A stretch of 64,000 bases of DNA from a virus (lineage: Duplodnaviria > Caudoviricetes), in IMG/VR virus record IMGVR_UViG_3300020460_000012; one strand, written 5' to 3'. The translations under genes and the position numbers were made by a program. The notes under the pieces were generated by a model. That model was given only the letters and a program-made list of their open reading frames with translations. It was not told where the DNA came from and ran no database searches. Of the stretch, positions 1 to 13,081 are shown in pieces; the first letter of the stretch is position 1; every line of letters begins with the position of its first letter.

Positions 1-12
1 AAGAGGGCAAAT

Positions 13-228
13 ATGGGAATGAGCAGTTGGATTTTAGATCAAGTAGATGAGTTCTACGAGATAGCACAGAAGACCATCGGGTCTTGTGAGTGCATAGAAG
101 AATTTCAAAAAGAGATGAAAGAGCATGAAGGTCTCCTAGCAGGGAGCACCGAGCTTGAATACTTATACAACGACAATGGGTATTCCGATCTTTGGAACGA
201 GTATTGGGAGAGTTTCCAAGATGCTTAA
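13..228 (+). CDS. Small acidic early protein, hypothetical
   Basis: ORF track; GAGGGC at 3-8, 4 nt before the ATG; D/E-rich with a W/Y-rich C-terminus. Confidence 0.75.
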   Translation: MGMSSWILDQVDEFYEIAQKTIGSCECIEEFQKEMKEHEGLLAGSTELEYLYNDNGYSDLWNEYWESFQDA

Positions 229-424
229 ACCAGCTTATTGCGATAGGATTGCACACGCCATTAGGGAAGAGCTTGTAAAGAGCGACCCACTAGGCATTAT
301 TGGGTTGGTTGGTCCAATTGAATGGGACCTTAACTCAGAGGGTTCATTCATGTCAACAAAGAAGACCATGGAGGTCACTGACATGAATGGTAAGACTTAC
401 ACCGTAACCATAGAGGAGAAGTAA
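221..424 (+). CDS. Hypothetical early protein (start revised to ATG 221)
   Basis: ORF track gives 155..424; ATG 221 overlaps the upstream stop and follows GGGAGAG. Confidence 0.65.
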   Translation: MLKPAYCDRIAHAIREELVKSDPLGIIGLVGPIEWDLNSEGSFMSTKKTMEVTDMNGKTYTVTIEEK

Positions 425-597
425 TGTTAGAGCTGATAGGGCTGATAGCTTTAATCTACTTGGCAGTTAAATTTTTACCAGGCATATTGGTGTTCGCACT
501 AAAGGTGCTCATAGTATTAGTAGGTATCTGGCTTATCCTGAATGTCCTTGTGTGGATGTTTGGATGGCCAAACTTTTTAATCGTTATGCCTCTTTAG
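424..597 (+). CDS. 57-aa hydrophobic membrane protein (not in ORF track)
   Basis: TAATG coupling at 424; translated by hand as MLELIGLIALIYLAVKFLPGILVFALKVLIVLVGIWLILNVLVWMFGWPNFLIVMPL. Confidence 0.7.
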   Translation: MLELIGLIALIYLAVKFLPGILVFALKVLIVLVGIWLILNVLVWMFGWPNFLIVMPL

Positions 598-628
598 GGG
601 TTGACAAATTCTTTAATCATGCTATACT
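595..628 (+). promoter_or_regulatory. Early sigma70-type promoter 1
   Basis: TAGGGG-TTGACA(601-606)-16 nt-TATACT(623-628). Confidence 0.85.
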
Positions 629-657
629 ATATGTATAGTTAAACAAAAGAGGGCAAC

Positions 658-1140
658 ATGGCAACAAGAGCAAGAATAGCACTTCAACTTAGTGAAGACA
701 AAATCATAGGATCCTATCATCATTGGGACGGATACCCTGGTGGACTAGGATACAATCTCATTGACAATTGGTATAAAGCTGACAAGGTAGAAAAGGCTAT
801 CATGTTAGGTGATGCAAGTAAATGGGGGCAGTTCATAGGAGAAAAGATCGACTTTAATGACACACAAGCAGATTCCTATGCTTATCAGAATGTTTATTAC
901 GGTCGTGACCGAGGCGAGAAAAATTGTCATCATCAGGTTTACACAAGCGAACAGGCTTATCTCAAGAACGGATTCAAGTCAGGTGAAGATTACATTTATC
1001 TAGCAAAGAACACAGGACAGAATCAGTTGACTTGGTTCTATGCGAAGTATGATATGAAGGAGTTTCTTCCTGTTGAAGGCAAAGCGATTAGAGAGCATAT
1101 AGAAATGTTGGAAATGCATTTGAACAAGGAGGCCGCATAA
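658..1140 (+). CDS. Conserved phage early protein with HWDGYP motif
   Basis: ORF track; MATR...YHHWDGYP pattern is common in uncharacterised phage proteins; GAGGGC RBS. Confidence 0.8.
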   Translation: MATRARIALQLSEDKIIGSYHHWDGYPGGLGYNLIDNWYKADKVEKAIMLGDASKWGQFIGEKIDFNDTQADSYAYQNVYYGRDRGEKNCHHQVYTSEQAYLKNGFKSGEDYIYLAKNTGQNQLTWFYAKYDMKEFLPVEGKAIREHIEMLEMHLNKEAA

Positions 1141-1661
1141 TGCCAAATTGGTGTAGCACAGATATAGAAATTATTGGCCCCACAGCTGAGATGAAGAAGC
1201 TGGCGGCTATTGTAAACTCAAACGATGATCCTGGATTCTTACAAACTATATGTCCAGGGCCCGAAGAATGGAACTATGATTGGTCCGTACAGAACTGGGG
1301 CACCAAGTGGGACATTAGTGAAGGGCATGCTGACGTAGAAGAGCTTGCGACTGCACACCCGATCCTACAGTCCAAGTTGTCTATCGCGACACAAACTGCA
1401 TGGGCACCCCCACTAGAGGCTCTCGACTACTACCTGCAGGAGAATCCTGAGTATATAGTCAAATGCTATTACTATGAGCCTGGCATGGACTTCGCAGGCA
1501 TATGGGAAGATGGCTATGACGATTGTCTCACAGATCTACACGATAAAAACATCGACTGGAACGAACCAGCCAGCCTAGCACAGAAGCTAGACGAGATGTA
1601 TGGCATCTGTGAAGAACATGCACAGTATGATGACGAAAACTTTGCCTACGAGAGTAGATAG
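1140..1661 (+). CDS. DUF1281/YubB-like (Api92-like) ferredoxin-fold protein
   Basis: MPNWC N-terminus, NWGTKW, TAWAPP and YYEPGMDFAG motifs. Confidence 0.75.
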   Translation: MPNWCSTDIEIIGPTAEMKKLAAIVNSNDDPGFLQTICPGPEEWNYDWSVQNWGTKWDISEGHADVEELATAHPILQSKLSIATQTAWAPPLEALDYYLQENPEYIVKCYYYEPGMDFAGIWEDGYDDCLTDLHDKNIDWNEPASLAQKLDEMYGICEEHAQYDDENFAYESR

Positions 1662-1692
1662 GGGTTGACAACTAGAATATTGATGCTATACT
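1659..1692 (+). promoter_or_regulatory. Early sigma70-type promoter 2
   Basis: TAGGGG-TTGACA(1665-1670)-16 nt-TATACT(1687-1692). Confidence 0.85.
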
Positions 1693-1722
1693 GTAAGTAT
1701 AGTTAAACAAAAAGAGGGCGTT

Positions 1723-1932
1723 ATGGGAATTTCAAGAGATAAAGCAATTGAGTTGGTCGAAGAAGGAATTGTCGATCCGATCCAGATGGTCATCATGTGT
1801 GTGAAATACATGAGTGAGGATGACGTCGAGGATATGCTCGATTGTAACGAACTGAGTGATCGGTTCATGGAAGAGGACGATGGCCAACCTGACTGGGAGC
1901 AGGAGTGGGCCGACTTTGGGGAGGAATACTAA
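1723..1932 (+). CDS. Small acidic early protein with DGQPDWEQEW tail
   Basis: ORF track; GAGGGC RBS at 1714. Confidence 0.8.
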   Translation: MGISRDKAIELVEEGIVDPIQMVIMCVKYMSEDDVEDMLDCNELSDRFMEEDDGQPDWEQEWADFGEEY

Positions 1933-1938
1933 GGTTAC

Positions 1939-2060
1939 GTGGTACCTACAAAGGCCCGGTCTCTGCAGGACCCTGCACAGTCGAAAGACACCGTAGAGCA
2001 GATAAGGGTAGGCTAAGGTACTAGATTAAAACAGTTGCATGCCGAGATCTAGACGCCACA
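1939..2060 (+). ncRNA. Candidate structured RNA (unclassified) in an early intergenic region
   Basis: GC-rich non-coding stretch with several stems: GTACCT/AGGTAC, CCTAC/GTAGG, TGCAG/CTGCA, GTC-GAAA-GAC, CTAGAT/ATCTAG. Confidence 0.45.
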
Positions 2061-2096
2061 TTATTTTAAAAAAACAAAAACAAGCTGGAGGGCAAA

Positions 2097-2705
2097 ATGA
2101 CTATTTCAAGAGAACAAATTAAAAAAGCATTCGTAAGTGATCCCAAGGACATAGGCGAAGAAGCATATAACAATCAGGACTGGTACCAAGAAGATGCTCA
2201 GAGAATGAGATACATCTTGGCGACCATTAATATGTCACCAGGTGATTCCTATGCTGACTTCAACGGTGAAGAAAGGCAATTAAAACTAGGTCAAGAGGAC
2301 AATAGGTTCTTTGATTGCATAGATTTTGATTATCAAGGTGGTTACGAGATCAAGGACGAAGCGAAACTGCTTGAACTGATCAACATGAGTGATGAGGATG
2401 TGGCAGAATATATTAATGTCAATGAATATGAGTGGATAGGTGATGACTACGATCATATCTCAGACTACCTATTTAAGATTATGAATGAATGGCAAGACGT
2501 TCTTGAATATGATACCGAGGACGAGGACGAGGATAGCATGACCATTACCACAAGAGAAATAGACTATGTGGTAGATTCTGAGACAGGCTTTAAGAGCGAA
2601 AACAAATATGAAGTGGCCTACAATATTCTCAACGAATATTGGGACAGTCTTCCGGATGATCACAAAGAATCAATCCACAAAAGACTGGAAGCGATAGGTG
2701 TATAA
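2097..2705 (+). CDS. Acidic hypothetical early protein
   Basis: ORF track; GGAGGGC RBS at 2087-2093. Confidence 0.8.
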   Translation: MTISREQIKKAFVSDPKDIGEEAYNNQDWYQEDAQRMRYILATINMSPGDSYADFNGEERQLKLGQEDNRFFDCIDFDYQGGYEIKDEAKLLELINMSDEDVAEYINVNEYEWIGDDYDHISDYLFKIMNEWQDVLEYDTEDEDEDSMTITTREIDYVVDSETGFKSENKYEVAYNILNEYWDSLPDDHKESIHKRLEAIGV

Positions 2706-2707
2706 TC

Positions 2708-2839
2708 ATGTATAAAATATACAATGATGAAAATATATTAGTGGCAGAGAGTGATACACTTTCTTTGTCAGTGCAAGAATTACTAGAGGGTAATGGATAT
2801 ACTATTATATTTCGTAAAAAAGGGGTTGACAAACTCTAA
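2708..2839 (+). CDS. 43-aa hypothetical protein (not in ORF track)
   Basis: MYKIYNDENILVAESDTLSLSVQELLEGNGYTIIFRKKGVDKL; fills the gap and runs into promoter 3. Confidence 0.45.
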   Translation: MYKIYNDENILVAESDTLSLSVQELLEGNGYTIIFRKKGVDKL

Positions 2840-2853
2840 ATAGGTGCTATACT
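2821..2853 (+). promoter_or_regulatory. Early sigma70-type promoter 3
   Basis: AGGGG-TTGACA(2826-2831)-16 nt-TATACT(2848-2853). Confidence 0.85.
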
Positions 2854-2891
2854 ATATGTATAGTTAGGGCAAACAGAAAAAAGAGGGCTTT

Positions 2892-3086
2892 ATGCAAATT
2901 ACTAGAACTAATCCTTTCACAAACACCGTTAACACACGTGAGCTGGATATTACTCCAGAGCAGGTGGCTGCGTATGAGGCAGGTGCTCTGCTTCAAAACG
3001 CTTTCCCAAACCTCTCAGCAGACGATCGCGAGTTTTACAAGACTGGCATCGACAACTGGGACGAGATGTTCGGAGGGGAGGAGTAG
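2892..3086 (+). CDS. Small conserved phage hypothetical protein
   Basis: ORF track; GAGGGC RBS; LLQNAFPNLSADDREF motif. Confidence 0.8.
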   Translation: MQITRTNPFTNTVNTRELDITPEQVAAYEAGALLQNAFPNLSADDREFYKTGIDNWDEMFGGEE

Positions 3087-3254
3087 ATGACTGTTCAAGA
3101 AGCATGGAGCATCGTAGGCAATCAGCCTAAGTCCGCGATCAAGAATATGGTCAAGGCGCTTGGCATGATGAAAGCTTTGAATACTCCAGAAGAGAACCGT
3201 AGACTTGAGGCAGGGAAGATCTGCTTGAAGACTACCAACCCGAGGTATTCATAA
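3087..3254 (+). CDS. 55-aa hypothetical protein (not in ORF track)
   Basis: MTVQEAWSIVGNQPKSAIKNMVKALGMMKALNTPEENRRLEAGKICLKTTNPRYS; abuts both neighbours; GGAGGAG upstream. Confidence 0.7.
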   Translation: MTVQEAWSIVGNQPKSAIKNMVKALGMMKALNTPEENRRLEAGKICLKTTNPRYS

Positions 3255-3436
3255 TGGCTATCTGTCCCGAATGTCACACCATGGACAAGAACTTCTTCGC
3301 ACCGAAGTGCCATGCTTGTAACACACCGGTTGGGTTCATCAATCAATGTATAGTGTCACTGATGTATAATGTGGTCTTCTTTGGAACACTGTATCTGATG
3401 TGGCTTTTGGTAAAATATTTATTTTGGAATTTATAA
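3254..3436 (+). CDS. Zinc-ribbon (CPEC...CHAC) protein with C-terminal transmembrane helix
   Basis: Two CxxC pairs and a hydrophobic tail; TAATG coupling. Confidence 0.7.
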   Translation: MAICPECHTMDKNFFAPKCHACNTPVGFINQCIVSLMYNVVFFGTLYLMWLLVKYLFWNL

Positions 3437-3440
3437 CATT

Positions 3441-3475
3441 TAGGGGTTGACACGTATACAGTTTGATCATATACT
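3441..3475 (+). promoter_or_regulatory. Early sigma70-type promoter 4
   Basis: TAGGGG-TTGACA(3447-3452)-17 nt-TATACT(3470-3475). Confidence 0.85.
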
Positions 3476-3515
3476 GTATATAACAATTAAGCAATGACAA
3501 CTGAAAGAGGGCAAT

Positions 3516-4520
3516 ATGTCAAATATTAAATTACTTGAAGGTAGCTATAAGATCCGCGGCAAGGAAGTAGATCTTACAGGTATGGTCTTTCCACTAGTAG
3601 AAGGCTACAAGGTTGGTACCCAGGGCGGATACGTAACCGTTGATGGATCAGCAGTAGCTGGCTTTCCAGATCGAAACATCAAGATCAAAGTAAGCGGTCC
3701 GAACTGCTTCGATCAGAGCACCACTGCAAAGGTCACCAAGCGAGAAGAGACAGACGAAGAGACGATTGAAAGACTTCGTGAGCGTTTCGACATGCTTGAA
3801 GATATGACCCGTGCAACTAAGAGAGGCGATGTGCGAGCAATGATCGTAAGTGGCCCTCCAGGTGTTGGTAAGTCACATGGTGTTGAAAAAGTACTAGGCA
3901 ACCATGAACTGATTGCTCAGCTAGGCAACAAGCCTGCTAAGTATGAAGTGGTCAAGGGTGCTATGTCAGCTATAGGACTCTACTGCAAATTGTACAAACA
4001 CGCAGACAAAGATAACGTGCTAGTGTTTGACGATTGTGATAGTGTGTTCAGCGATGAGCTTTCATTGAACATCTTGAAGGCCGCCCTAGACTCGAAGAGG
4101 ACTAGAAAGATTTGTTGGAACACAGACAGTTTCAAATTACGAAATGAAGGTGTGCCAGACAGCTTTGACTTTAAAGGCTCAGCTATCTTTATCACCAACA
4201 TCAAGTTTGATAACGTTAAGAGCAAGAAGATGAGGGACCATTTAGAAGCTCTTGAGTCACGTTGTCACTACATTGATCTGACTATTGATACGGACAGAGA
4301 GAAGATGTTACGTATTAAACAGATCACCAAAGACGGCATGCTAAATGACTATCAGTTGGGCGAGCATGTCGAGAACGATATTGTCGACTTTATGGAAGCG
4401 AACAAAAACAAGCTCAGGGAATTAAGCTTGCGAACTGTTCTTAAAGTCGCAGACTTAGCCAAAGCATTTCCCGACAGATGGGAAGCGATGGCTGAGAACA
4501 CGGTAATGCGTCGAGCTTAG
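3516..4520 (+). CDS. Phage AAA+-type P-loop ATPase
   Basis: Walker A GPPGVGKS, Walker B VLVFDDCD, sensor FITN, arginine finger ALESR. Confidence 0.85.
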   Translation: MSNIKLLEGSYKIRGKEVDLTGMVFPLVEGYKVGTQGGYVTVDGSAVAGFPDRNIKIKVSGPNCFDQSTTAKVTKREETDEETIERLRERFDMLEDMTRATKRGDVRAMIVSGPPGVGKSHGVEKVLGNHELIAQLGNKPAKYEVVKGAMSAIGLYCKLYKHADKDNVLVFDDCDSVFSDELSLNILKAALDSKRTRKICWNTDSFKLRNEGVPDSFDFKGSAIFITNIKFDNVKSKKMRDHLEALESRCHYIDLTIDTDREKMLRIKQITKDGMLNDYQLGEHVENDIVDFMEANKNKLRELSLRTVLKVADLAKAFPDRWEAMAENTVMRRA

Positions 4521-4537
4521 AGCTCCGCCACCGTGTT

Positions 4538-4665
4538 CATGTACCAGCGTCCGGGGTGCCCTCCCCCAGCTGGTACTACATGTCGGAAGTTTCAGCAAGC
4601 CCTCACGCTGGCTCCGACGAATAGAGCCCTGCATAGTGTGCCCTCGCTATGCGGGGCTCGACCTT
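4538..4665 (+). ncRNA. Candidate three-hairpin sRNA with GCCCUC loops, antisense to the early-gene GAGGGC RBS
   Basis: Three consecutive stem-loops (4541-4576, 4582-4618, 4624-4659) with loops UGCCCUC, AAGCCCUCAC and GUGCCCUC; U-G pairs favour the + strand; CUUUU follows. Confidence 0.7.
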
Positions 4666-4711
4666 TTAGACTTATCCACAGGGCAAAAATCCACATAAAA
4701 TAATGGTAAAT

Positions 4712-4746
4712 TAGGGGTTGACAGATCTGGATTCAGAACATATACT
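4712..4746 (+). promoter_or_regulatory. Early sigma70-type promoter 5
   Basis: TAGGGG-TTGACA(4718-4723)-17 nt-TATACT(4741-4746). Confidence 0.85.
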
Positions 4747-4776
4747 GTATATAACAGTTAGGAAATAGAGGGCATT

Positions 4777-5199
4777 ATGAAAAAGATATTAATTACTACC
4801 GCACTAATAGCAAGTTTAGGTCTTGCTACAACTCCAGTTAAAGCTGACACAGACGACTTTATCAAAGTCATAGGCGCTGTGATTATATTAGATCAGCTTT
4901 TCAACAAAAACGATCGTAGACACAACGGCGGCTATCATCCACAGAACGGTGGCTACTACCCCGGCGGTATCTACGATGACAGAGGTTACGATCACAACCG
5001 TAGGGTTTGTAACGGTAACCTAGGCTGTACTCCATATGATAACAATCCTTGGAACAATCCTAGAAAGCATGGTTATGCTAGAGGATATGACACAGGTGAG
5101 ATCTGTGGACAAAGAACAGAGCATTACAGAAACTATACAGAGACTCTTCACTTAGACTGTAATGGTAATGTTTTATTTGTAACTAGACACGCCAAGTAA
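4777..5199 (+). CDS. Secreted/periplasmic G-Y-N-rich protein
   Basis: Signal-peptide-like N-terminus (MKKILITTAL...VKA); NGGY repeats; GAGGGC RBS. Confidence 0.75.
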   Translation: MKKILITTALIASLGLATTPVKADTDDFIKVIGAVIILDQLFNKNDRRHNGGYHPQNGGYYPGGIYDDRGYDHNRRVCNGNLGCTPYDNNPWNNPRKHGYARGYDTGEICGQRTEHYRNYTETLHLDCNGNVLFVTRHAK

Positions 5200-5210
5200 G
5201 GAGGGCACTT

Positions 5211-5498
5211 ATGAAAGCACATCAAGCACAATATATCCTTGAGCAGTTCGTTGACTCAACCAATAGATGGAATAGCATATTTGGCAAAGAGCCTATGACA
5301 TTTCCTCTAAGCCAACAGAACGCAAACAGTCTTATGGACAAGCTTGCAGGAGAGCTATCACCAGAGAACCTACACTGTGATGGTGAGATATCACATGCAC
5401 AGGCTCAACGTAAGTTCCGTGAGCTTAACACTATCAAGAAAGCACTAGAAACCTACTGCTTGAACAATTGGCTTGATACCCCTGAGTGCGTATATTAG
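5211..5498 (+). CDS. Conserved phage hypothetical early protein
   Basis: ORF track; LSPENLHCDGEIS motif; GGAGGGC RBS. Confidence 0.8.
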   Translation: MKAHQAQYILEQFVDSTNRWNSIFGKEPMTFPLSQQNANSLMDKLAGELSPENLHCDGEISHAQAQRKFRELNTIKKALETYCLNNWLDTPECVY

Positions 5499-5529
5499 GG
5501 GTTGACAAGACTGCAATTGATGTTATTAT
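5496..5529 (+). promoter_or_regulatory. Early sigma70-type promoter 6
   Basis: TAGGGG-TTGACA(5502-5507)-16 nt-TATTAT(5524-5529). Confidence 0.8.
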
Positions 5530-5564
5530 AGTAGAGTAAGTTAAACAAAACAAGCGAGGGCAAT

Positions 5565-5897
5565 ATGAACTACACTGTACAAGAACTTAAAGACCTGTTA
5601 GAAGATGCTAAACTAGCGGCTTACACTGCTGGCATTGAGCACCTAGACACATATGGTGAGCATGCTTACTGTGGCTTTGCTTGGGTAGATATATTTGGTG
5701 TTAAAGGCAACACCAAGCTAGGCCGTGCTATGAAAGCGGCAGGCTATGAGAAGGACTACAAAGGTGCTTACTCAATATGGAACCCAAGTGGCTTAGGTAC
5801 GCAGTGCATGAGCACTAAAGAAGCTGGTGCTAGAGCGGCGGCGCAAGTGTTTAAGGACGCAGGCTTTACAGCTTACGCAGGCAGTCGACCAGACTAG
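5565..5897 (+). CDS. Conserved phage protein with CGFAWV motif
   Basis: ORF track; CGFAWV...Q.M..KE.GA.A motif; GAGGGC RBS. Confidence 0.8.
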   Translation: MNYTVQELKDLLEDAKLAAYTAGIEHLDTYGEHAYCGFAWVDIFGVKGNTKLGRAMKAAGYEKDYKGAYSIWNPSGLGTQCMSTKEAGARAAAQVFKDAGFTAYAGSRPD

Positions 5898-5917
5898 GTC
5901 GCAACCAAACTGCCAGC

Positions 5918-5945
5918 AACCCCGGCTTAGGTCGGGGTTTTTTTT
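5918..5945 (+). terminator. Rho-independent terminator ending the early region
   Basis: AACCCCGGC-TTAG-GTCGGGGTT stem-loop followed by a T run. Confidence 0.85.
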
Positions 5946-6123
5946 GAAAAAATTTTCTCGGGGGGTCGGGGTTATATACGACAAATTTGCAACTGCCCGC
6001 ACAAGTGCTTAATGACCGCTTTTTAAAAATTGGGTGATGCAAAATCACCACCTCGATTCTGTAAGTACTTGCCTACAATTTTTTACGCGACTCGATTTTT
6101 TTCACACAGAACCCATTTCGGCC

Positions 6124-6131
6124 TATAAATA
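6124..6131 (+). promoter_or_regulatory. T4-type late promoter TATAAATA
   Basis: Exact TATAAATA 4 nt upstream of ATG 6136. Confidence 0.7.
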
Positions 6132-6135
6132 CACT

Positions 6136-6333
6136 ATGCTAGGAAATGATCTTAAAATAGCAGGACTACAAGCAGTTATAGTGCTAGTACCAACCTACAC
6201 AGTCGCATATCTAACTGAGCAAATGGTATACACTATTCCCATGCTAGCGGCCAGTAGTTTTGTAGCTGCCGCACTACGTCCTAATACTAGTATCAAAGTA
6301 GATGATGCCAGCAAAGACGGTGGTAAGGAATAA
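6136..6333 (+). CDS. 65-aa two-TM membrane protein (start revised from 6034)
   Basis: MLGNDLKIAGLQAVIVLVPTYTVAYLTEQMVYTIPMLAASSFVAAAL...; directly follows a late promoter. Confidence 0.65.
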   Translation: MLGNDLKIAGLQAVIVLVPTYTVAYLTEQMVYTIPMLAASSFVAAALRPNTSIKVDDASKDGGKE

Positions 6334-6488
6334 CTTTTTACTATGCAAAAAACAACCCCTCTACACTGTGAACACCAGTGTGTTACACACCAAAAAAGGT
6401 TAAATAACACTGTATACACACGTAGATTCACAACAATTCAATCCAACTGCGGTTTCGTCAATAAGCGTATAGCAGACTCACATCTCGT

Positions 6489-6737
6489 GTGTATACTCTA
6501 ATGTATCGTGTCAAACTAATTTACAGTACTAGGCCAAGAATAGAACGCTTCATACGAGACACTCGCTATGAGGATGTGCTTACCCAAACTGCTTGTACCA
6601 AACTATTACTTAATCACAACATACACACCACACAGCCAGATCACTGTACTATTGAGTTTGAGTCAGATCGCGACCGCATGTTGGCCATGCTTAAACTGTC
6701 AGAATCTACACTCTACAAAGCAAGGTTAGTAGATTAA
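6489..6737 (+). CDS. Hypothetical protein (ATG 6501 is an alternative start)
   Basis: ORF track. Confidence 0.5.
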   Translation: MYTLMYRVKLIYSTRPRIERFIRDTRYEDVLTQTACTKLLLNHNIHTTQPDHCTIEFESDRDRMLAMLKLSESTLYKARLVD

Positions 6738-7022
6738 GAACCATCTTTGTTCTAATCAGCTTCTAAGGCCAATTGCAACGCTATGCAATACATCTGTCGT
6801 GGTGGTAGCACAGTTTTAGAACCTTTATGTGTGTTCTAGTATGTGTGTACACCTAGCAGATTTTTTGCACTAGTAAACGCTAAATTTTGTGCAAAAAGCG
6901 TTTACCGCTTCGCGGCAGGTAGTGCGTACCGCAGGCGGCTTCGCCGTAGTAGTTGCTAAATAGTTGCACTTGTTGACCGTGAGGGCTGACAAGCTATATC
7001 TCAAACACTGGAGAAACAACAA

Positions 7023-7184
7023 ATGGACGGAGAAACTCTCGACCTGCTTCTAAAACTATGGCCCGTGGGTCTTGGTTTTGTTACATTGGTAATAGTGCTA
7101 GCACAGATGTACTCTAGAATCAATGTTCTCGAAGACAAGGTCAGGACGCTGTTTGATCTATTTAATAGGGAAAAGGACAAATAA
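7023..7184 (+). CDS. 53-aa single-TM plus coiled-coil protein, holin-like/XhlA-like architecture (not in ORF track)
   Basis: MDGETLDLLLKLWPVGLGFVTLVIVLAQMYSRINVLEDKVRTLFDLFNREKDK; GGAG RBS; TAAATA at 6957. Confidence 0.65.
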   Translation: MDGETLDLLLKLWPVGLGFVTLVIVLAQMYSRINVLEDKVRTLFDLFNREKDK

Positions 7185-7265
7185 CAACACAGTCTCTATG
7201 ACTGCTATACCAATCCAAAACGCACACCACAGTAGTGCAGTGGTATTCAAATCCGTTAGTTTCAT
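7158..7265 (-). CDS. 35-aa hydrophobic peptide (not in ORF track)
   Basis: MKLTDLNTTALLWCAFWIGIAVIETVLLFVLFPIK; ATGA overlap with the upstream ORF. Confidence 0.5.
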   Translation of the reverse strand: MKLTDLNTTALLWCAFWIGIAVIETVLLFVLFPIK

Positions 7266-7354
7266 TGCTTAGTTGCCTTGTGGCTATACCAAAAAGTTAC
7301 AAGCCCACCTACTATGGGCAAGCTCATCAACAGTATGATCAAAAACAGTGTCAC
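7262..7354 (-). CDS. 30-aa hydrophobic peptide (not in ORF track)
   Basis: GTG start overlapping the upstream TAG; MTLFLIILLMSLPIVGGLVTFWYSHKATKQ. Confidence 0.45.
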   Translation of the reverse strand: MTLFLIILLMSLPIVGGLVTFWYSHKATKQ

Positions 7355-7560
7355 TAGCGTTCGTCTTCTCCATAGCGTCCACGGTTTCGATTGCCATCAC
7401 CGTTTAGCTCAGTTAAGTCCTGTTGTTTGGCTTTGAAGTCAGTCTGCTGTATCATTTCTTCTATTTGTTTTCTCTGCTGTTCTATGATCTCAGCTTGTGA
7501 CTCTATCTGCCTACGCTGAGCTTGAATCACAGGTTCATGTGGAAATTGTATTATGCCCAT
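7354..7560 (-). CDS. Small coiled-coil protein
   Basis: ORF track; Q/E/I heptad-rich; TAATG coupling. Confidence 0.65.
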   Translation of the reverse strand: MGIIQFPHEPVIQAQRRQIESQAEIIEQQRKQIEEMIQQTDFKAKQQDLTELNGDGNRNRGRYGEDER

Positions 7561-7778
7561 TAGTATATCATCCTTCTTAGTTGGTCTGCCATTCTTGCAG
7601 TTTCGTCTTCGTCTAAACAGCTACACTGCATGTTTGATCTTAGGTGCCCTTCACACCATGCTATGTATCCGCTAGGGCAACGAAACTCATCTGGATCTAC
7701 TCGATCATAGTTATAAGCATAGTCTTGGTTTGCACAACCACTAGCCAACAGTAATACCATAACAAAATACTTGTTCAT
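7560..7778 (-). CDS. Small Cys-rich lipoprotein
   Basis: Lipobox LLLASG-C, four further Cys; AAGGAG RBS. Confidence 0.75.
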   Translation of the reverse strand: MNKYFVMVLLLASGCANQDYAYNYDRVDPDEFRCPSGYIAWCEGHLRSNMQCSCLDEDETARMADQLRRMIY

Positions 7779-7891
7779 ACGTCTCCTTCGTTGTCAGTAA
7801 ATGCAGGGTGACCTTCAAAGTATAGCTGTATCATCACATGTATAGCTGTGTTGACAAAGATCAGCATACCGAACATTACCCATCCAACCAT
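7775..7891 (-). CDS. 33-38-aa single-TM peptide (not in ORF track)
   Basis: MVGWVMFGMLIFVNTAIHVMIQLYFEGHPAFTDNEGDV; ATGA overlap with the lipoprotein gene; TAAATA at 7891-7896 may favour a start at 7876. Confidence 0.5.
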   Translation of the reverse strand: MVGWVMFGMLIFVNTAIHVMIQLYFEGHPAFTDNEGDV

Positions 7892-7929
7892 ATTTATCTC
7901 TTAGTTTGAATACTTATCATTTACGTGGA

Positions 7930-9357
7930 TTACTCTGATCCTAAATTATTGATGAAGTTTCTTAATTTGGTTGAATCTGTTTCTGCTTTAATCTTGCCTA
8001 CTGTATCACCTTGTGTAGGATCTGCATCTTCTGGATCACCTGTTTCGGGAACAGTCTTTCTCTTCAAGCTATCATATATTGTGCTGTTGCGTTTATCAAA
8101 TTCTTGATATTCTTCATCATCTGCTAGATCTCTAATACGCAAACTGTCTACATCAAATTCAAGATCTACCTTAGCACCAACACCACTACTGCTTCTAGTT
8201 TTCATTAGCTGTATTTGATATCTACCACGTTCACGCATTGCTCTACTAGTAAAGATACCTATAACATTATCAGCAGTTTGAATCTTACTAAGTCCACCAC
8301 TAATATGCGAATGATCAAATTCAATTTCTTCTACTGCACCTCTGTTTAGCTGTGCCGCTGTTACAAATACAGTATTCAACTCCATTGCTAGATTACGTAG
8401 TTCTTCACTTACATACTTGTCTTTAATAAACAAGTTTTCAGCACTTACCTTAGCACCATTTGGCATAAGCAAGTCTAAGTAATCAATCAATAGTACATCA
8501 ATCTTACGTCCTGTTTTAATTTCATATTCTTTAATATAGCTACGCACATCATTTGGAGTCTTACCACTAGGCATATATTTTACTTGAAATGCTCCACTCT
8601 TTTTGCCTATCATTTTAACTTTCATTTCAACATCATCTATATTCTTAAAAATATCACGTGTTGAAATATCAGTTACCATACTGTCAACTCTCATACTAAC
8701 TAAGTTTTCACTTAGCTCTAGTGTAAGATACAATACGTTCATTCCTGCTAGTGCCCAATTAACTCCTAGGTTAGCTAAGAATAAACTTTTACCTGCACCT
8801 GATCCACCTGCAAATATATTCAGCTCACCTCTATTAAATCCACCAAATAGTTTCTTATCTAGGCTTTCCCAACCTGTAGTTACTTGTCCGTTATTATCTT
8901 TGATTGCTTCTAATCTTGCTCTCGGATCACGCCAGTAGTCTGTACCTAAGTCTTTTTGCAATCCTATCTGTACTGCTTTCTTAACTAGATCTTCTACCGG
9001 ACCATATTCGCCCTTTTCAAGTAAATCAGCACCTTTTAATATTGCACTTTCTAGTGCCTTGTGTCTGCTAAATGTTTCAAACTCTGCTAGTAGCCAATCG
9101 TAGTGATTTTCTTGCATCTGTCCTGGATCAGCTAAGTCTGCTTTTGTTGCCGCATTAATTATTTCAAATGTAGGCAATGCATTGTGTTCTGTTACATATT
9201 CATTTAGAAACTTTGCGGCATCTTGTAAACGCCTATCAAACATTGTATGATCAAATACTGTTTGACATCTAACAAATGTTTCTGCATCTGTTAGCATCAT
9301 TTCAAGATATACTTTTTGTATATCATATCCATAGTCTGTGTTTTGTCTTGTTGCCAT
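7930..9357 (-). CDS. gp41: Replicative DNA helicase, DnaB/T4 gp41-like
   Basis: Walker A GGSGAGKS, LLIDYLDL, TAAQLNR, KTRSS motifs. Confidence 0.93.
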   Translation of the reverse strand: MATRQNTDYGYDIQKVYLEMMLTDAETFVRCQTVFDHTMFDRRLQDAAKFLNEYVTEHNALPTFEIINAATKADLADPGQMQENHYDWLLAEFETFSRHKALESAILKGADLLEKGEYGPVEDLVKKAVQIGLQKDLGTDYWRDPRARLEAIKDNNGQVTTGWESLDKKLFGGFNRGELNIFAGGSGAGKSLFLANLGVNWALAGMNVLYLTLELSENLVSMRVDSMVTDISTRDIFKNIDDVEMKVKMIGKKSGAFQVKYMPSGKTPNDVRSYIKEYEIKTGRKIDVLLIDYLDLLMPNGAKVSAENLFIKDKYVSEELRNLAMELNTVFVTAAQLNRGAVEEIEFDHSHISGGLSKIQTADNVIGIFTSRAMRERGRYQIQLMKTRSSSGVGAKVDLEFDVDSLRIRDLADDEEYQEFDKRNSTIYDSLKRKTVPETGDPEDADPTQGDTVGKIKAETDSTKLRNFINNLGSE

Positions 9358-12113: not shown

Positions 12114-13081
12114 TTTTTTGCTCCTAATCTTATTTTTAAAGGAGAAGTTTCAGCATGACTTACAATACTGTGTAGAGTAAAAATCCTGCCATAATGCTCT
12201 ACTGCATCTCCAATGTCATTAATGTTATCGCCCCAAGGTGGTAAAGAAACTCCCCAGCCAAAGTCTATGGCTTGTTCTACAAGTTTCGAACCCGCTTTAT
12301 CTCTGTCAGGCACTACTATTACATCTTTATTTAATCTATTAATTAATAGTGCTTGTTGATCTTTGGCTTCGCTTCCTAATAGTGCAACGCCTTCGATATG
12401 GATAGCATCTATAGGACCTTCGCATACAATTACAAATATTTTTGCAGGGCGTTGATCATCTAAGTTAAACACATATCCTGGCTGTTGCTCTGAAAGATAT
12501 TTTACCTTTTTATTATCATTCACAGATCTTGCAGTCCAGCCCACAATGCGGTCTTCATAGTAAAAAGGTATAATTAGTCTATCTCTATATCCTAATGATG
12601 GAGACCAATAGTAGTTGTAATCTTCTAAGAACAATTTTCTTTGTTTCATATAGTTAACTACTTGTGCAAAATGCTCACTAGTGTTTGAACACTCTGCAAT
12701 GCTTACTGCATCTAATGGCAACGGCACAGTATTAAACTTAGGTACTTCTACAAGTTGCTGTTTTACTTGTATGCCTTCGTTCTCCTGCATTACAGTAAGT
12801 GCAAGTTTGTTAATTACATCATCTGGTGCATTTAACCATTGTAGTAACTTTCTCATTTTAACACTTAGATTGCGACCTTGTTGCCAGCTAGCTTTATAAC
12901 CACAGTTGAAACAATGGTAACTTACCCCATCAGCGTTTGATATTAAACCACCACGCTGTCTTGTGTCAGCTGTAGTCCCATTATGTTGACAACAAGGCGC
13001 ATTGAATGCGGTCCACCCGCTAGGCGTTTGTTTACGCTTAGGCGGCAGATATGTCAGAACTGTATCGTTGACTACACTCAT
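12101..13081 (-). CDS. gp61: DNA primase (zinc-binding plus TOPRIM), T4 gp61-like
   Basis: CC..H / YHCFNCG zinc motif; VCEGPIDA and VVPDRD TOPRIM motifs. Confidence 0.9.
   Translation of the reverse strand: MSVVNDTVLTYLPPKRKQTPSGWTAFNAPCCQHNGTTADTRQRGGLISNADGVSYHCFNCGYKASWQQGRNLSVKMRKLLQWLNAPDDVINKLALTVMQENEGIQVKQQLVEVPKFNTVPLPLDAVSIAECSNTSEHFAQVVNYMKQRKLFLEDYNYYWSPSLGYRDRLIIPFYYEDRIVGWTARSVNDNKKVKYLSEQQPGYVFNLDDQRPAKIFVIVCEGPIDAIHIEGVALLGSEAKDQQALLINRLNKDVIVVPDRDKAGSKLVEQAIDFGWGVSLPPWGDNINDIGDAVEHYGRIFTLHSIVSHAETSPLKIRLGAKKWFI

Follow-up and report, generated by a model that had tools for sequence, protein, structure and literature searches.

The C4 RNA of phages P1 and P7 and the sar RNA of phage P22 are antisense RNAs with which a phage covers ribosome sites of the very operon that encodes the RNA; each serves one immunity operon of a temperate phage and uses longer, unique complementarities. 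In large lytic phages temporal control is known mainly from T4, whose RegB and RegA proteins end early expression: RegB together with S1 cuts an extended site that overlaps the Shine-Dalgarno (SD) sequence, GG*AGRAYARAA, of a kind found chiefly on early mRNAs, and RegA, whose sites are AU-rich, blocks initiation regions (PMC3014915). T4-like phages also carry PeSLs (promoter-early stem-loops; Arbiol et al. 2010; Comeau, Arbiol and Krisch 2014), units composed of a stem-loop, a sigma-70 early promoter, an SD and a start codon, which mediate module shuffling (PMC4122927), and in Staphylococcus aureus the UCCC loops of RNAIII hairpins 7, 13 and 14 and of RsaE bind SD regions (Geissmann et al. 2009, PMC2790875). 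Here we analyze a 64,000-nucleotide stretch of DNA (the window; IMG/VR record IMGVR_UViG_3300020460_000012) from a metagenome-assembled marine jumbo myovirus, in which the word GAGGGC (the tag) stands just before the start codons of predicted early genes and its exact complement stands in the loops of hairpins that follow one of those genes, which encodes an AAA-ATPase-like protein. The explanation that we favor, with a probability of roughly 0.45, is that GAGGGCA serves both as a moderate SD and as the target of a multi-loop anti-SD RNA from the 3' untranslated region (3'UTR) of the AAA gene, an RNA that would shut off early translation.

Positions 1-5900 of the window hold about 15 small open reading frames (ORFs), all on the plus strand, and have a GC content of 43% versus about 35% elsewhere in the window. 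Six sigma-70-type promoters lie in this block (Table 1), each matching 11 of the 12 consensus positions (TTGACA, a spacer of 16-17 nt, TATACT or TATTAT), and by analogy with T4-type phages they mark it as a set of genes that host polymerase would transcribe early. The plus strand of the block contains nine copies of GAGGGC, and all nine are followed by an ATG that starts an ORF of 64-334 codons, at a distance of 3 nt in seven cases and 4 nt in the other two (the copies at 3 and 5201), exactly as the original prediction had listed them. In 2000 shuffles of 1-5900 that preserve dinucleotide composition, GAGGGC occurred 1.6 times on average and 7 times at most, and the full arrangement GAGGGC-N3-4-ATG, observed nine times, had a mean of 0.08 and a maximum of 2. 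The remaining 58.1 kb has a single plus-strand copy (at 6981, with no ATG after it) and no minus-strand copy, and none of the 74 ORFs beyond the early block is tagged; a canonical SD-like purine run precedes 31 of them and a weak SD or none precedes 42. The claims that GAGGGC is restricted to early genes, and that core genes begin differently, are both borne out by these counts.

Within the block the tag marks a particular class of gene. In six of the nine cases the tagged gene is the first cistron behind a promoter, and for a further copy, at position 3, the window edge cuts off the upstream context; the downstream, coupled cistrons at 221, 424, 1140, 3087 and 3254 have GGAG/GGAGG-type sites. 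The two tags that lack a consensus promoter (2088 and 5201) both read GGAGGGC. Conservation extends over 7 nt, GAGGGCA, and the leader of gene 2892 has an additional AGGGCA at 2866, close to the transcription start site (TSS). The tag keeps a fixed place near the ATG but lies anywhere from 20 to 31 nt from the -10 box, and this tie to the start codon, with only loose spacing from the promoter, points to a role at the level of RNA or translation and not to a promoter function.

How much of the tag can the ribosome read? Against the canonical 16S tail only GAGG pairs (4 bp, -6.3 kcal/mol) and the GC(A) adds nothing, so the original prediction was right that the bases after GAGG go beyond what a canonical anti-SD explains. 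The GGAGGGC variants reach -9.8 and -12.6 kcal/mol, and AAGGAGGU reaches -12.9 kcal/mol. From the end of GAGG to the ATG is 5-6 nt in all nine tags, which fits the SD spacing of about 5-9 nt, and the tag thus has both the complementarity (GAGG) and the spacing of a canonical SD. A host whose 16S rRNA itself reads GCCCUC would account for the extra bases, but a search for GCCCTC 22-32 nt downstream of a conserved 16S anchor, in one genome each of 185,579 prokaryotic species, gave no match at the anti-SD position (the control with the canonical CACCTCCTT gave at least 120 matches). Highly expressed late genes of the window have AGGAG/AGGAGG sites, so that the host most likely has an ordinary anti-SD. 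At several middle or late genes (starts at 13081, 25522 and 56954) a TATAAT lies 6-7 nt ahead of the ATG, which leaves no space for an SD and suggests that their mRNAs are leaderless, as the original prediction had said of some core genes. The ribosomal protein bS21 lies beside the anti-SD helix in the ribosome. Two related genomes, one of them rated complete, encode a bS21 (PF01165; L199, G002:332212-332364, 69 bits, and L200, G001:23004-23159, 56 bits), and tblastn found none in the window; a phage bS21 could bear on a switch from SD-led early genes to SD-poor late genes.

The tag had been described as private to this genome, and in this the original prediction was wrong. Relatives were found through the AAA-ATPase-like early gene (about 175 in IMG/VR), and the 41 loci with at least 69% identity were analyzed. 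The commonest 6-mer and 7-mer upstream of their ORF starts are GAGGGC and GAGGGCA, respectively, and among distinct promoter-proximal ORFs 186 of 264 have RGGGC no more than 16 nt from the ATG, versus 35 of 784 other ORFs (odds ratio 51; the sequences behind this ratio are related, so its p-value is not a true probability). The gap after RGGGC ranges from 2 to 9 nt and is most often 3 nt (95/221). In a logo aligned on GGGC the two preceding positions are G (.86) and A (.97) and the one that follows is A (.81), and the rest of the leader is A-rich and low in information; AAGGGCA or GGGGCA predominates in some relatives, which leaves AGGGCA as the constant core. Some leaders of the relatives (20/264) have a second, TSS-proximal AGGGCA. 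Genome-wide counts on four larger related genomes place AGGGCA-N2-8-ATG in a single block on a single strand (the reversed-pattern control gave 0-2 hits), and in the 357-kb genome that is rated complete 15 of the 18 forward hits fall inside 9.5-23.3 kb. Counting the word genome-wide against a background, as had been suggested, here by shuffles in the window and by pattern scan in relatives, therefore upholds its confinement to the early block. The tag is common to a clade of uncultured marine phages, with one early cluster per genome.

The window's large terminase is 54% identical to TerL of Pseudomonas phage PA5oct, its nearest cultured relative; PA5oct has neither tag nor hairpins, and its published transcriptome cannot inform this case. 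The window also encodes a 1091-amino-acid sheath protein, UvsX and helicases, and no DNA near-identical to it was found in the phage collection.

The complement of the tag is as narrowly placed as the tag itself. On the minus strand, GAGGGC occurs in non-coding DNA of the window only at 4558, 4599 and 4640 (that is, as GCCCTC on the plus strand), within three hairpins directly downstream of the AAA gene (Table 1). The three-hairpin region has a folding z-score of -4.85, its loops would cost only 0-0.1 kcal/mol to open, and hairpin 3 scores 35.9 bits (E 7e-6) against a covariance model, R1. Relatives have two to four hairpins at the same place, with different stems and GCCCUC loops; of their 139 distinct plus-strand GCCCTC sites 98 are inside hairpin loops, and the rest are mostly Walker-A codons of the AAA gene. 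There is one such array per genome, always next to the AAA gene and upstream of a tagged gene, and model R1 likewise finds one hairpin copy per clade genome and detects no T-type hairpin in either PA5oct or the 62%-identity sister group. When IMG/VR was scanned for an exact two-hairpin pattern, 36 loci matched, of which about 16 are chance matches (they lie in GC-rich coding regions of unrelated phages and have neither hairpins nor an AAA gene) that we kept only as an internal control: tags lie on the same versus the opposite strand in a ratio of 111 to 4 in the loci with a genuine array and of 30 to 19 in the chance-hit loci. A looser count of hairpin and motif co-occurrence over all loci admitted many false loops and was not used. 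Searches of the window found no tRNA and no Rfam family (C4 antisense RNA included) at gathering thresholds, and none at E values up to 5 in 4400-4800.

For the last hairpin of the array, the T type, 25 distinct copies align without gaps; the loop UGCCCU and the G-C and U-G pairs that close it are invariant, the next three pairs are always formed by three or four types of pair, and 84% of all stem cells pair. The covariation score of 0.718 was reached in none of 500 shuffles (shuffled 0.228; slid controls 0.11-0.21). At variable stem pairs G-U outnumbers A-C by 22 to 5, in favor of the plus strand, and a T run follows 13 of 28 distinct T-hairpin copies versus an A run ahead of 1 of 28. The G-U bias and the downstream T runs assign the structure to the plus-strand transcript, as the 3'UTR or terminator of an early operon, and in relatives the T hairpin often abuts the following promoter. 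A Csr-like sponge made from a minus-strand transcript was also considered and rejected, since the loops are the complement of the leader motif, not the same motif, and lie on the transcribed plus strand. A 36-nt segment at 6538-6573 is 72% identical to hairpin 3 (4619-4654), with the loop GAGACACUCG instead of UGUGCCCUCG, and may be a decayed second copy in the transition zone past the early block. The 164-nt gap at 1933-2096 has no significant structure (z -0.92).

The above observations show an invariant word before early genes and an invariant word in hairpin loops, but are the two quantitatively suited to one another? The loops of 561 distinct plus-strand hairpins from the clade have GCCCTC as their commonest 6-mer, and 258 promoter-proximal leaders have GAGGGC as theirs (in 154 of them), with AGGGCA second; the hexaloop UGCCCU is the exact complement of AGGGCA. 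The tag pairs with the loop at -14.2 kcal/mol and with the anti-SD at -6.3 kcal/mol, and a canonical SD does the reverse (-12.9 kcal/mol with the anti-SD, -6.3 kcal/mol with the loop). Across eight leaders UGCCCUC and GAGGGCA form 6-7 bp at -13 to -19 kcal/mol, and particular lineages have longer matches (loop AUUGCCCUC with GAGGGCAAU; leader GCGAGGGCA with UGCCCUCGC). Given these reciprocal energies, the GC(A) would let the RNA tell tagged leaders from other phage genes and beat the ribosome there. Something besides the ribosome may read the tag. The original prediction had offered two such readers, the RNA at 4538-4665 and a RegA-like repressor; the former now has exact-complement loops, covarying stems and the appropriate (plus) strand on its side, and for the latter a search of four related genomes gave no hits, though control genomes were silent too.

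The mechanism that we favor would run as follows: GAGG, 5-6 nt before the AUG, would act as a moderate SD for an ordinary host ribosome, and AGGGCA or GAGGGCA would be the landing site for the UGCCCU and GCCCUC loops of the two- to four-hairpin RNA. This RNA would be transcribed with the AAA gene and probably released from its 3'UTR as a stable species. As it accumulated, its loops would pair in trans with the tag on the first cistron of each host-polymerase early operon, outcompete the weaker anti-SD pairing and cover the ribosome site, so that the early class would be repressed specifically; the pairing might also speed decay of early mRNAs. Leaderless genes, and genes that have a canonical AGGAGG, would be spared.

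Several observations weigh against this mechanism. Tag and loop are both invariant in the clade, so that base-by-base covariation between them cannot be scored and their match is effectively one evolutionary observation; where the base before AGGGCA does change (G or A), the loops show no matching change. Complete pairing along a closed 6-nt loop is sterically demanding. Hairpin 3 of the window has a weak T run and is not called by a terminator scan, and contigs from RNA libraries (four marine metatranscriptome studies), which as assembled sequences carry no information on the ends or levels of RNAs, represent portions of 1-6000 that exclude 4520-4680. The 69%-identity relative L037 has a GGAGAUC-type SD in seven of eight promoter-proximal leaders (3300-8700) and has lost the T-type hairpin, a joint change that speaks for the mechanism, yet it keeps one or two GCCCUC-like hairpins though most of its leaders are untagged. 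The GAGGGC(A) tag and the GCCCUC hairpins are also absent together from PA5oct and from the sister group, which again is in favor of the mechanism, but the sister group retains GGCA-type leader words (AAGGCAAC, RGGCACA), some with AGGGCA; the GCA part of the tag may thus be older than the hairpins or independent of them. No hairpin loops complementary to those sister-group words were found, so no covariation at the level of the whole system was shown. The L037 leaders also hold a 5' hairpin (GAGCGAACAGCUC) and a CCAAUAACUCC box, a different design which implies that leader architecture is swapped as a whole set between lineages, and the early leaders of the sister group (L042-L080; e.g., L042 4550-4595) have two or three tandem AAGGCAA(A)C words and RGGCACA before the ATG.

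The repetition of promoter, leader, tag and ATG as one PeSL-like unit (repeat families D1-D6) raises another explanation, in which the tag is simply the SD end of a mobile promoter-leader cassette, uniform by common descent, by recombination between cassettes and by a local context preference of the host ribosome, and the hairpin loops either have a local, cis role (silencing the SD of the next gene on read-through, or stabilizing the AAA mRNA) or match the tag fortuitously. The repeat unit does span just the parts in the published PeSL definition (PMC4122927), and RNA-library contigs join 1707 to 12 and 2071 to 2821, which are cassette borders; the retention of a GGCA-type motif by a sister group that lacks hairpins, and the fixed place of the single array by the AAA gene and upstream of a tagged gene, are also as a cassette would have it. 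Leaders of one genome, and likewise those of different genomes, however, vary in length and sequence from the -10 box to the tag, whose 7 nt do not change, and tagged genes 2097 and 5211 have no cassette promoter. Hitchhiking leaves unexplained why the top loop 6-mer should be the reverse complement of the top leader 6-mer, and why invariant loops should sit beside covarying stems; a purely cis role cannot account for the tag, since most tagged genes have no hairpin upstream. We regard the cassette alone as a rather unlikely explanation. At the first of the two contig junctions the leader of promoter 1665 is joined to gene 13 via AGGAAGGGCAAAAAT, and at the second 2072-2820 (the two ORFs 2097-2839) is skipped; such alternative junctions suggest variant genomes among which entire gene modules have been swapped at the cassette borders, in the manner of PeSLs. 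An inverted repeat spans the -10 box of five early promoters (612-642, 1676-1706, 2837-2867, 3465-3490 and 4736-4761), and reads CTATAC-N5-GTATAG in the first three promoters but ATATAC-T-GTATAT in those at 3447 and 4718; its left arm is upstream of the likely start site, for which reason it resembles a DNA-level operator and not an RNA stem, and it looks like the operator of a dimeric repressor.

The T4 precedent of RegB with S1 and of RegA (PMC3014915) suggests instead that an early or middle phage protein, a RegB-like endoribonuclease or a translational repressor, reads GAGGGCA and that the hairpins are unrelated; the leaders of relatives with two AGGGCA copies could suit a dimer. Searches of four related genomes, one of them complete, gave no match to RegB (PF10715) or RegA (PF01818), a weak negative since control genomes were silent too and the window's own genome lay outside the search. 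Ten early proteins of the window matched no Pfam RNA-binding or nuclease family and have no informative Pfam or PHROG assignment, and nothing about a protein reader accounts for conserved loops that are exactly complementary to the tag, so we consider it improbable. Less credible by far is a double-strand DNA site at GAGGGC/GCCCTC, occurring in both orientations, for a binding or modifying protein, for example a roadblock to early transcription. The hexamer is indeed present on both strands of the early block, and its three copies within the hairpins follow one another at intervals of 41 and 41 bp, but relatives do not keep that spacing (35-67 bp), the stems covary so as to preserve RNA pairing with a G-U bias on the plus strand, and the leader copies all point the same way and take their position from the ATG, not from the promoter.

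Table 1. Positions of the tag, the AAA gene, its downstream hairpins and the early promoters in the window
Feature	Position	Strand	Remarks
GAGGGC tag	3..8	+	4 nt before ATG 13 (ORF 13-228); upstream context lost at window edge
GAGGGC tag	649..654	+	3 nt before ATG 658 (ORF 658-1140); first cistron, promoter 601-628
GAGGGC tag	1714..1719	+	3 nt before ATG 1723 (ORF 1723-1932); promoter 1665-1692
GGAGGGC tag	2088..2093	+	3 nt before ATG 2097 (ORF 2097-2705); without consensus promoter
GAGGGC tag	2883..2888	+	3 nt before ATG 2892 (ORF 2892-3086); promoter 2826-2853
GAGGGC tag	3507..3512	+	3 nt before ATG 3516, AAA-ATPase gene (3516-4520); promoter 3447-3475
GAGGGC tag	4768..4773	+	3 nt before ATG 4777 (ORF 4777-5199); promoter 4718-4746
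GGAGGGC tag	5201..5206	+	4 nt before ATG 5211 (ORF 5211-5498); internal cistron, no consensus promoter of its own
GAGGGC tag (GCGAGGGCA)	5556..5561	+	3 nt before ATG 5565 (ORF 5565-5897); promoter 5502-5529
AAA-ATPase-like early gene (phrog_1250, no assigned function)	3516..4520	+	every genuine hairpin array lies directly 3' of it
Hairpin 1, AAA 3'UTR	4541..4576	+	hexaloop UGCCCU 4557-4562 (GCCCTC 4558-4563)
Hairpin 2	4582..4618	+	10-nt loop AAGCCCUCAC 4597-4606, GCCCUC-ACGCU type, kept in relatives
Hairpin 3 (T type)	4624..4659	+	15-bp stem, hexaloop UGCCCU 4639-4644
Six sigma-70-type early promoters	601-628, 1665-1692, 2826-2853, 3447-3475, 4718-4746, 5502-5529	+	11 of 12 consensus matches each; with leader, tag and ATG a repeated PeSL-like cassette

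What would follow if the favored explanation is correct? An early class would be flagged by a short word inside its ribosome sites, and the only conserved element able to read that word would be an RNA that the early genes themselves produce, so that delayed negative feedback would be built in. It is a tentative extension, and one that we hold with somewhat less than even confidence, that the marine jumbo phages of this widespread clade shut off their early genes by RNA alone, through a multi-loop 3'UTR RNA that recognizes a 6-7-nt tag and silences a whole class of genes translationally. The system is kept in dozens of uncultured marine phage genomes and would then be a common mechanism in the ocean virome, and tag and loop together would make a compact, orthogonal translational switch for engineering. 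The tag is in any case a simple computational marker of the first cistrons of early operons in this clade; should the link to the RNA fail, it still shows phage early cassettes fixing bases beside the SD that do not pair with the anti-SD, for which another explanation would be needed. A literature search for GAGGGC in phage ribosome binding, and for phage small RNAs that act on early SDs, returned nothing relevant.

The cassette itself belongs to the PeSL kind: it is a repeated near-consensus sigma-70 promoter with SD and start codon, placed before small variable early ORFs and apparently at the borders of gene insertions and deletions. Unlike a set of PeSLs, only one of its promoters (4718) is directly preceded by a strong stem-loop, formed by the hairpins at 4541-4659 (558-573, before promoter 601, is a weak candidate), and neither a fixed 7-nt word that departs from the anti-SD match nor its complement on a separate conserved RNA has been described for PeSLs. 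Like T4 RegB sites, the tag is an extended motif that takes in the SD and singles out early transcripts as a class, and a non-ribosomal reader is proposed to inactivate them; here, however, the motif is GAGGGCA, not GGAGR with an A-rich RAYARAA, and the candidate reader is an RNA, not a nuclease. The T4 RegA operator is different again, being AU-rich and unstructured and lying over the AUG, whereas the tag is G/C-rich and upstream of it.

Among RNAs, RNAIII and RsaE share with the hairpin array one unpaired C-rich word in several loops, complementary to the G-rich SD regions of many mRNAs, with a conserved motif on variable stems. The array differs from them in being phage-encoded, in lying in a 3'UTR, in having the phage's own early operons as its putative targets, and in using a longer word whose non-SD bases would give class specificity, and there is no sequence or Rfam relationship. 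CsrB and RsmZ are likewise multi-hairpin RNAs with one short word per loop, from a word class that also occurs at SDs and at upstream leader sites, but their loops repeat the mRNA motif (GGA) and titrate a protein, whereas the loops here are its complement, which points to RNA-RNA pairing. C4 RNA and sar are also structured phage RNAs, cut from or co-transcribed with their targets, with loops that pair to the SD region; the 6-7-nt tag, unlike their complementarities, is common to at least a dozen early operons of a lytic-type jumbo phage. What is new is thus the combination of tag and complementary loop as antisense control of ribosome sites, which would be notable if it acts in trans on the whole early regulon: in that case it would do with an RNA what T4 does with RegB, as the first antisense RNA of a lytic phage to target the phage's own genes across a whole regulon.

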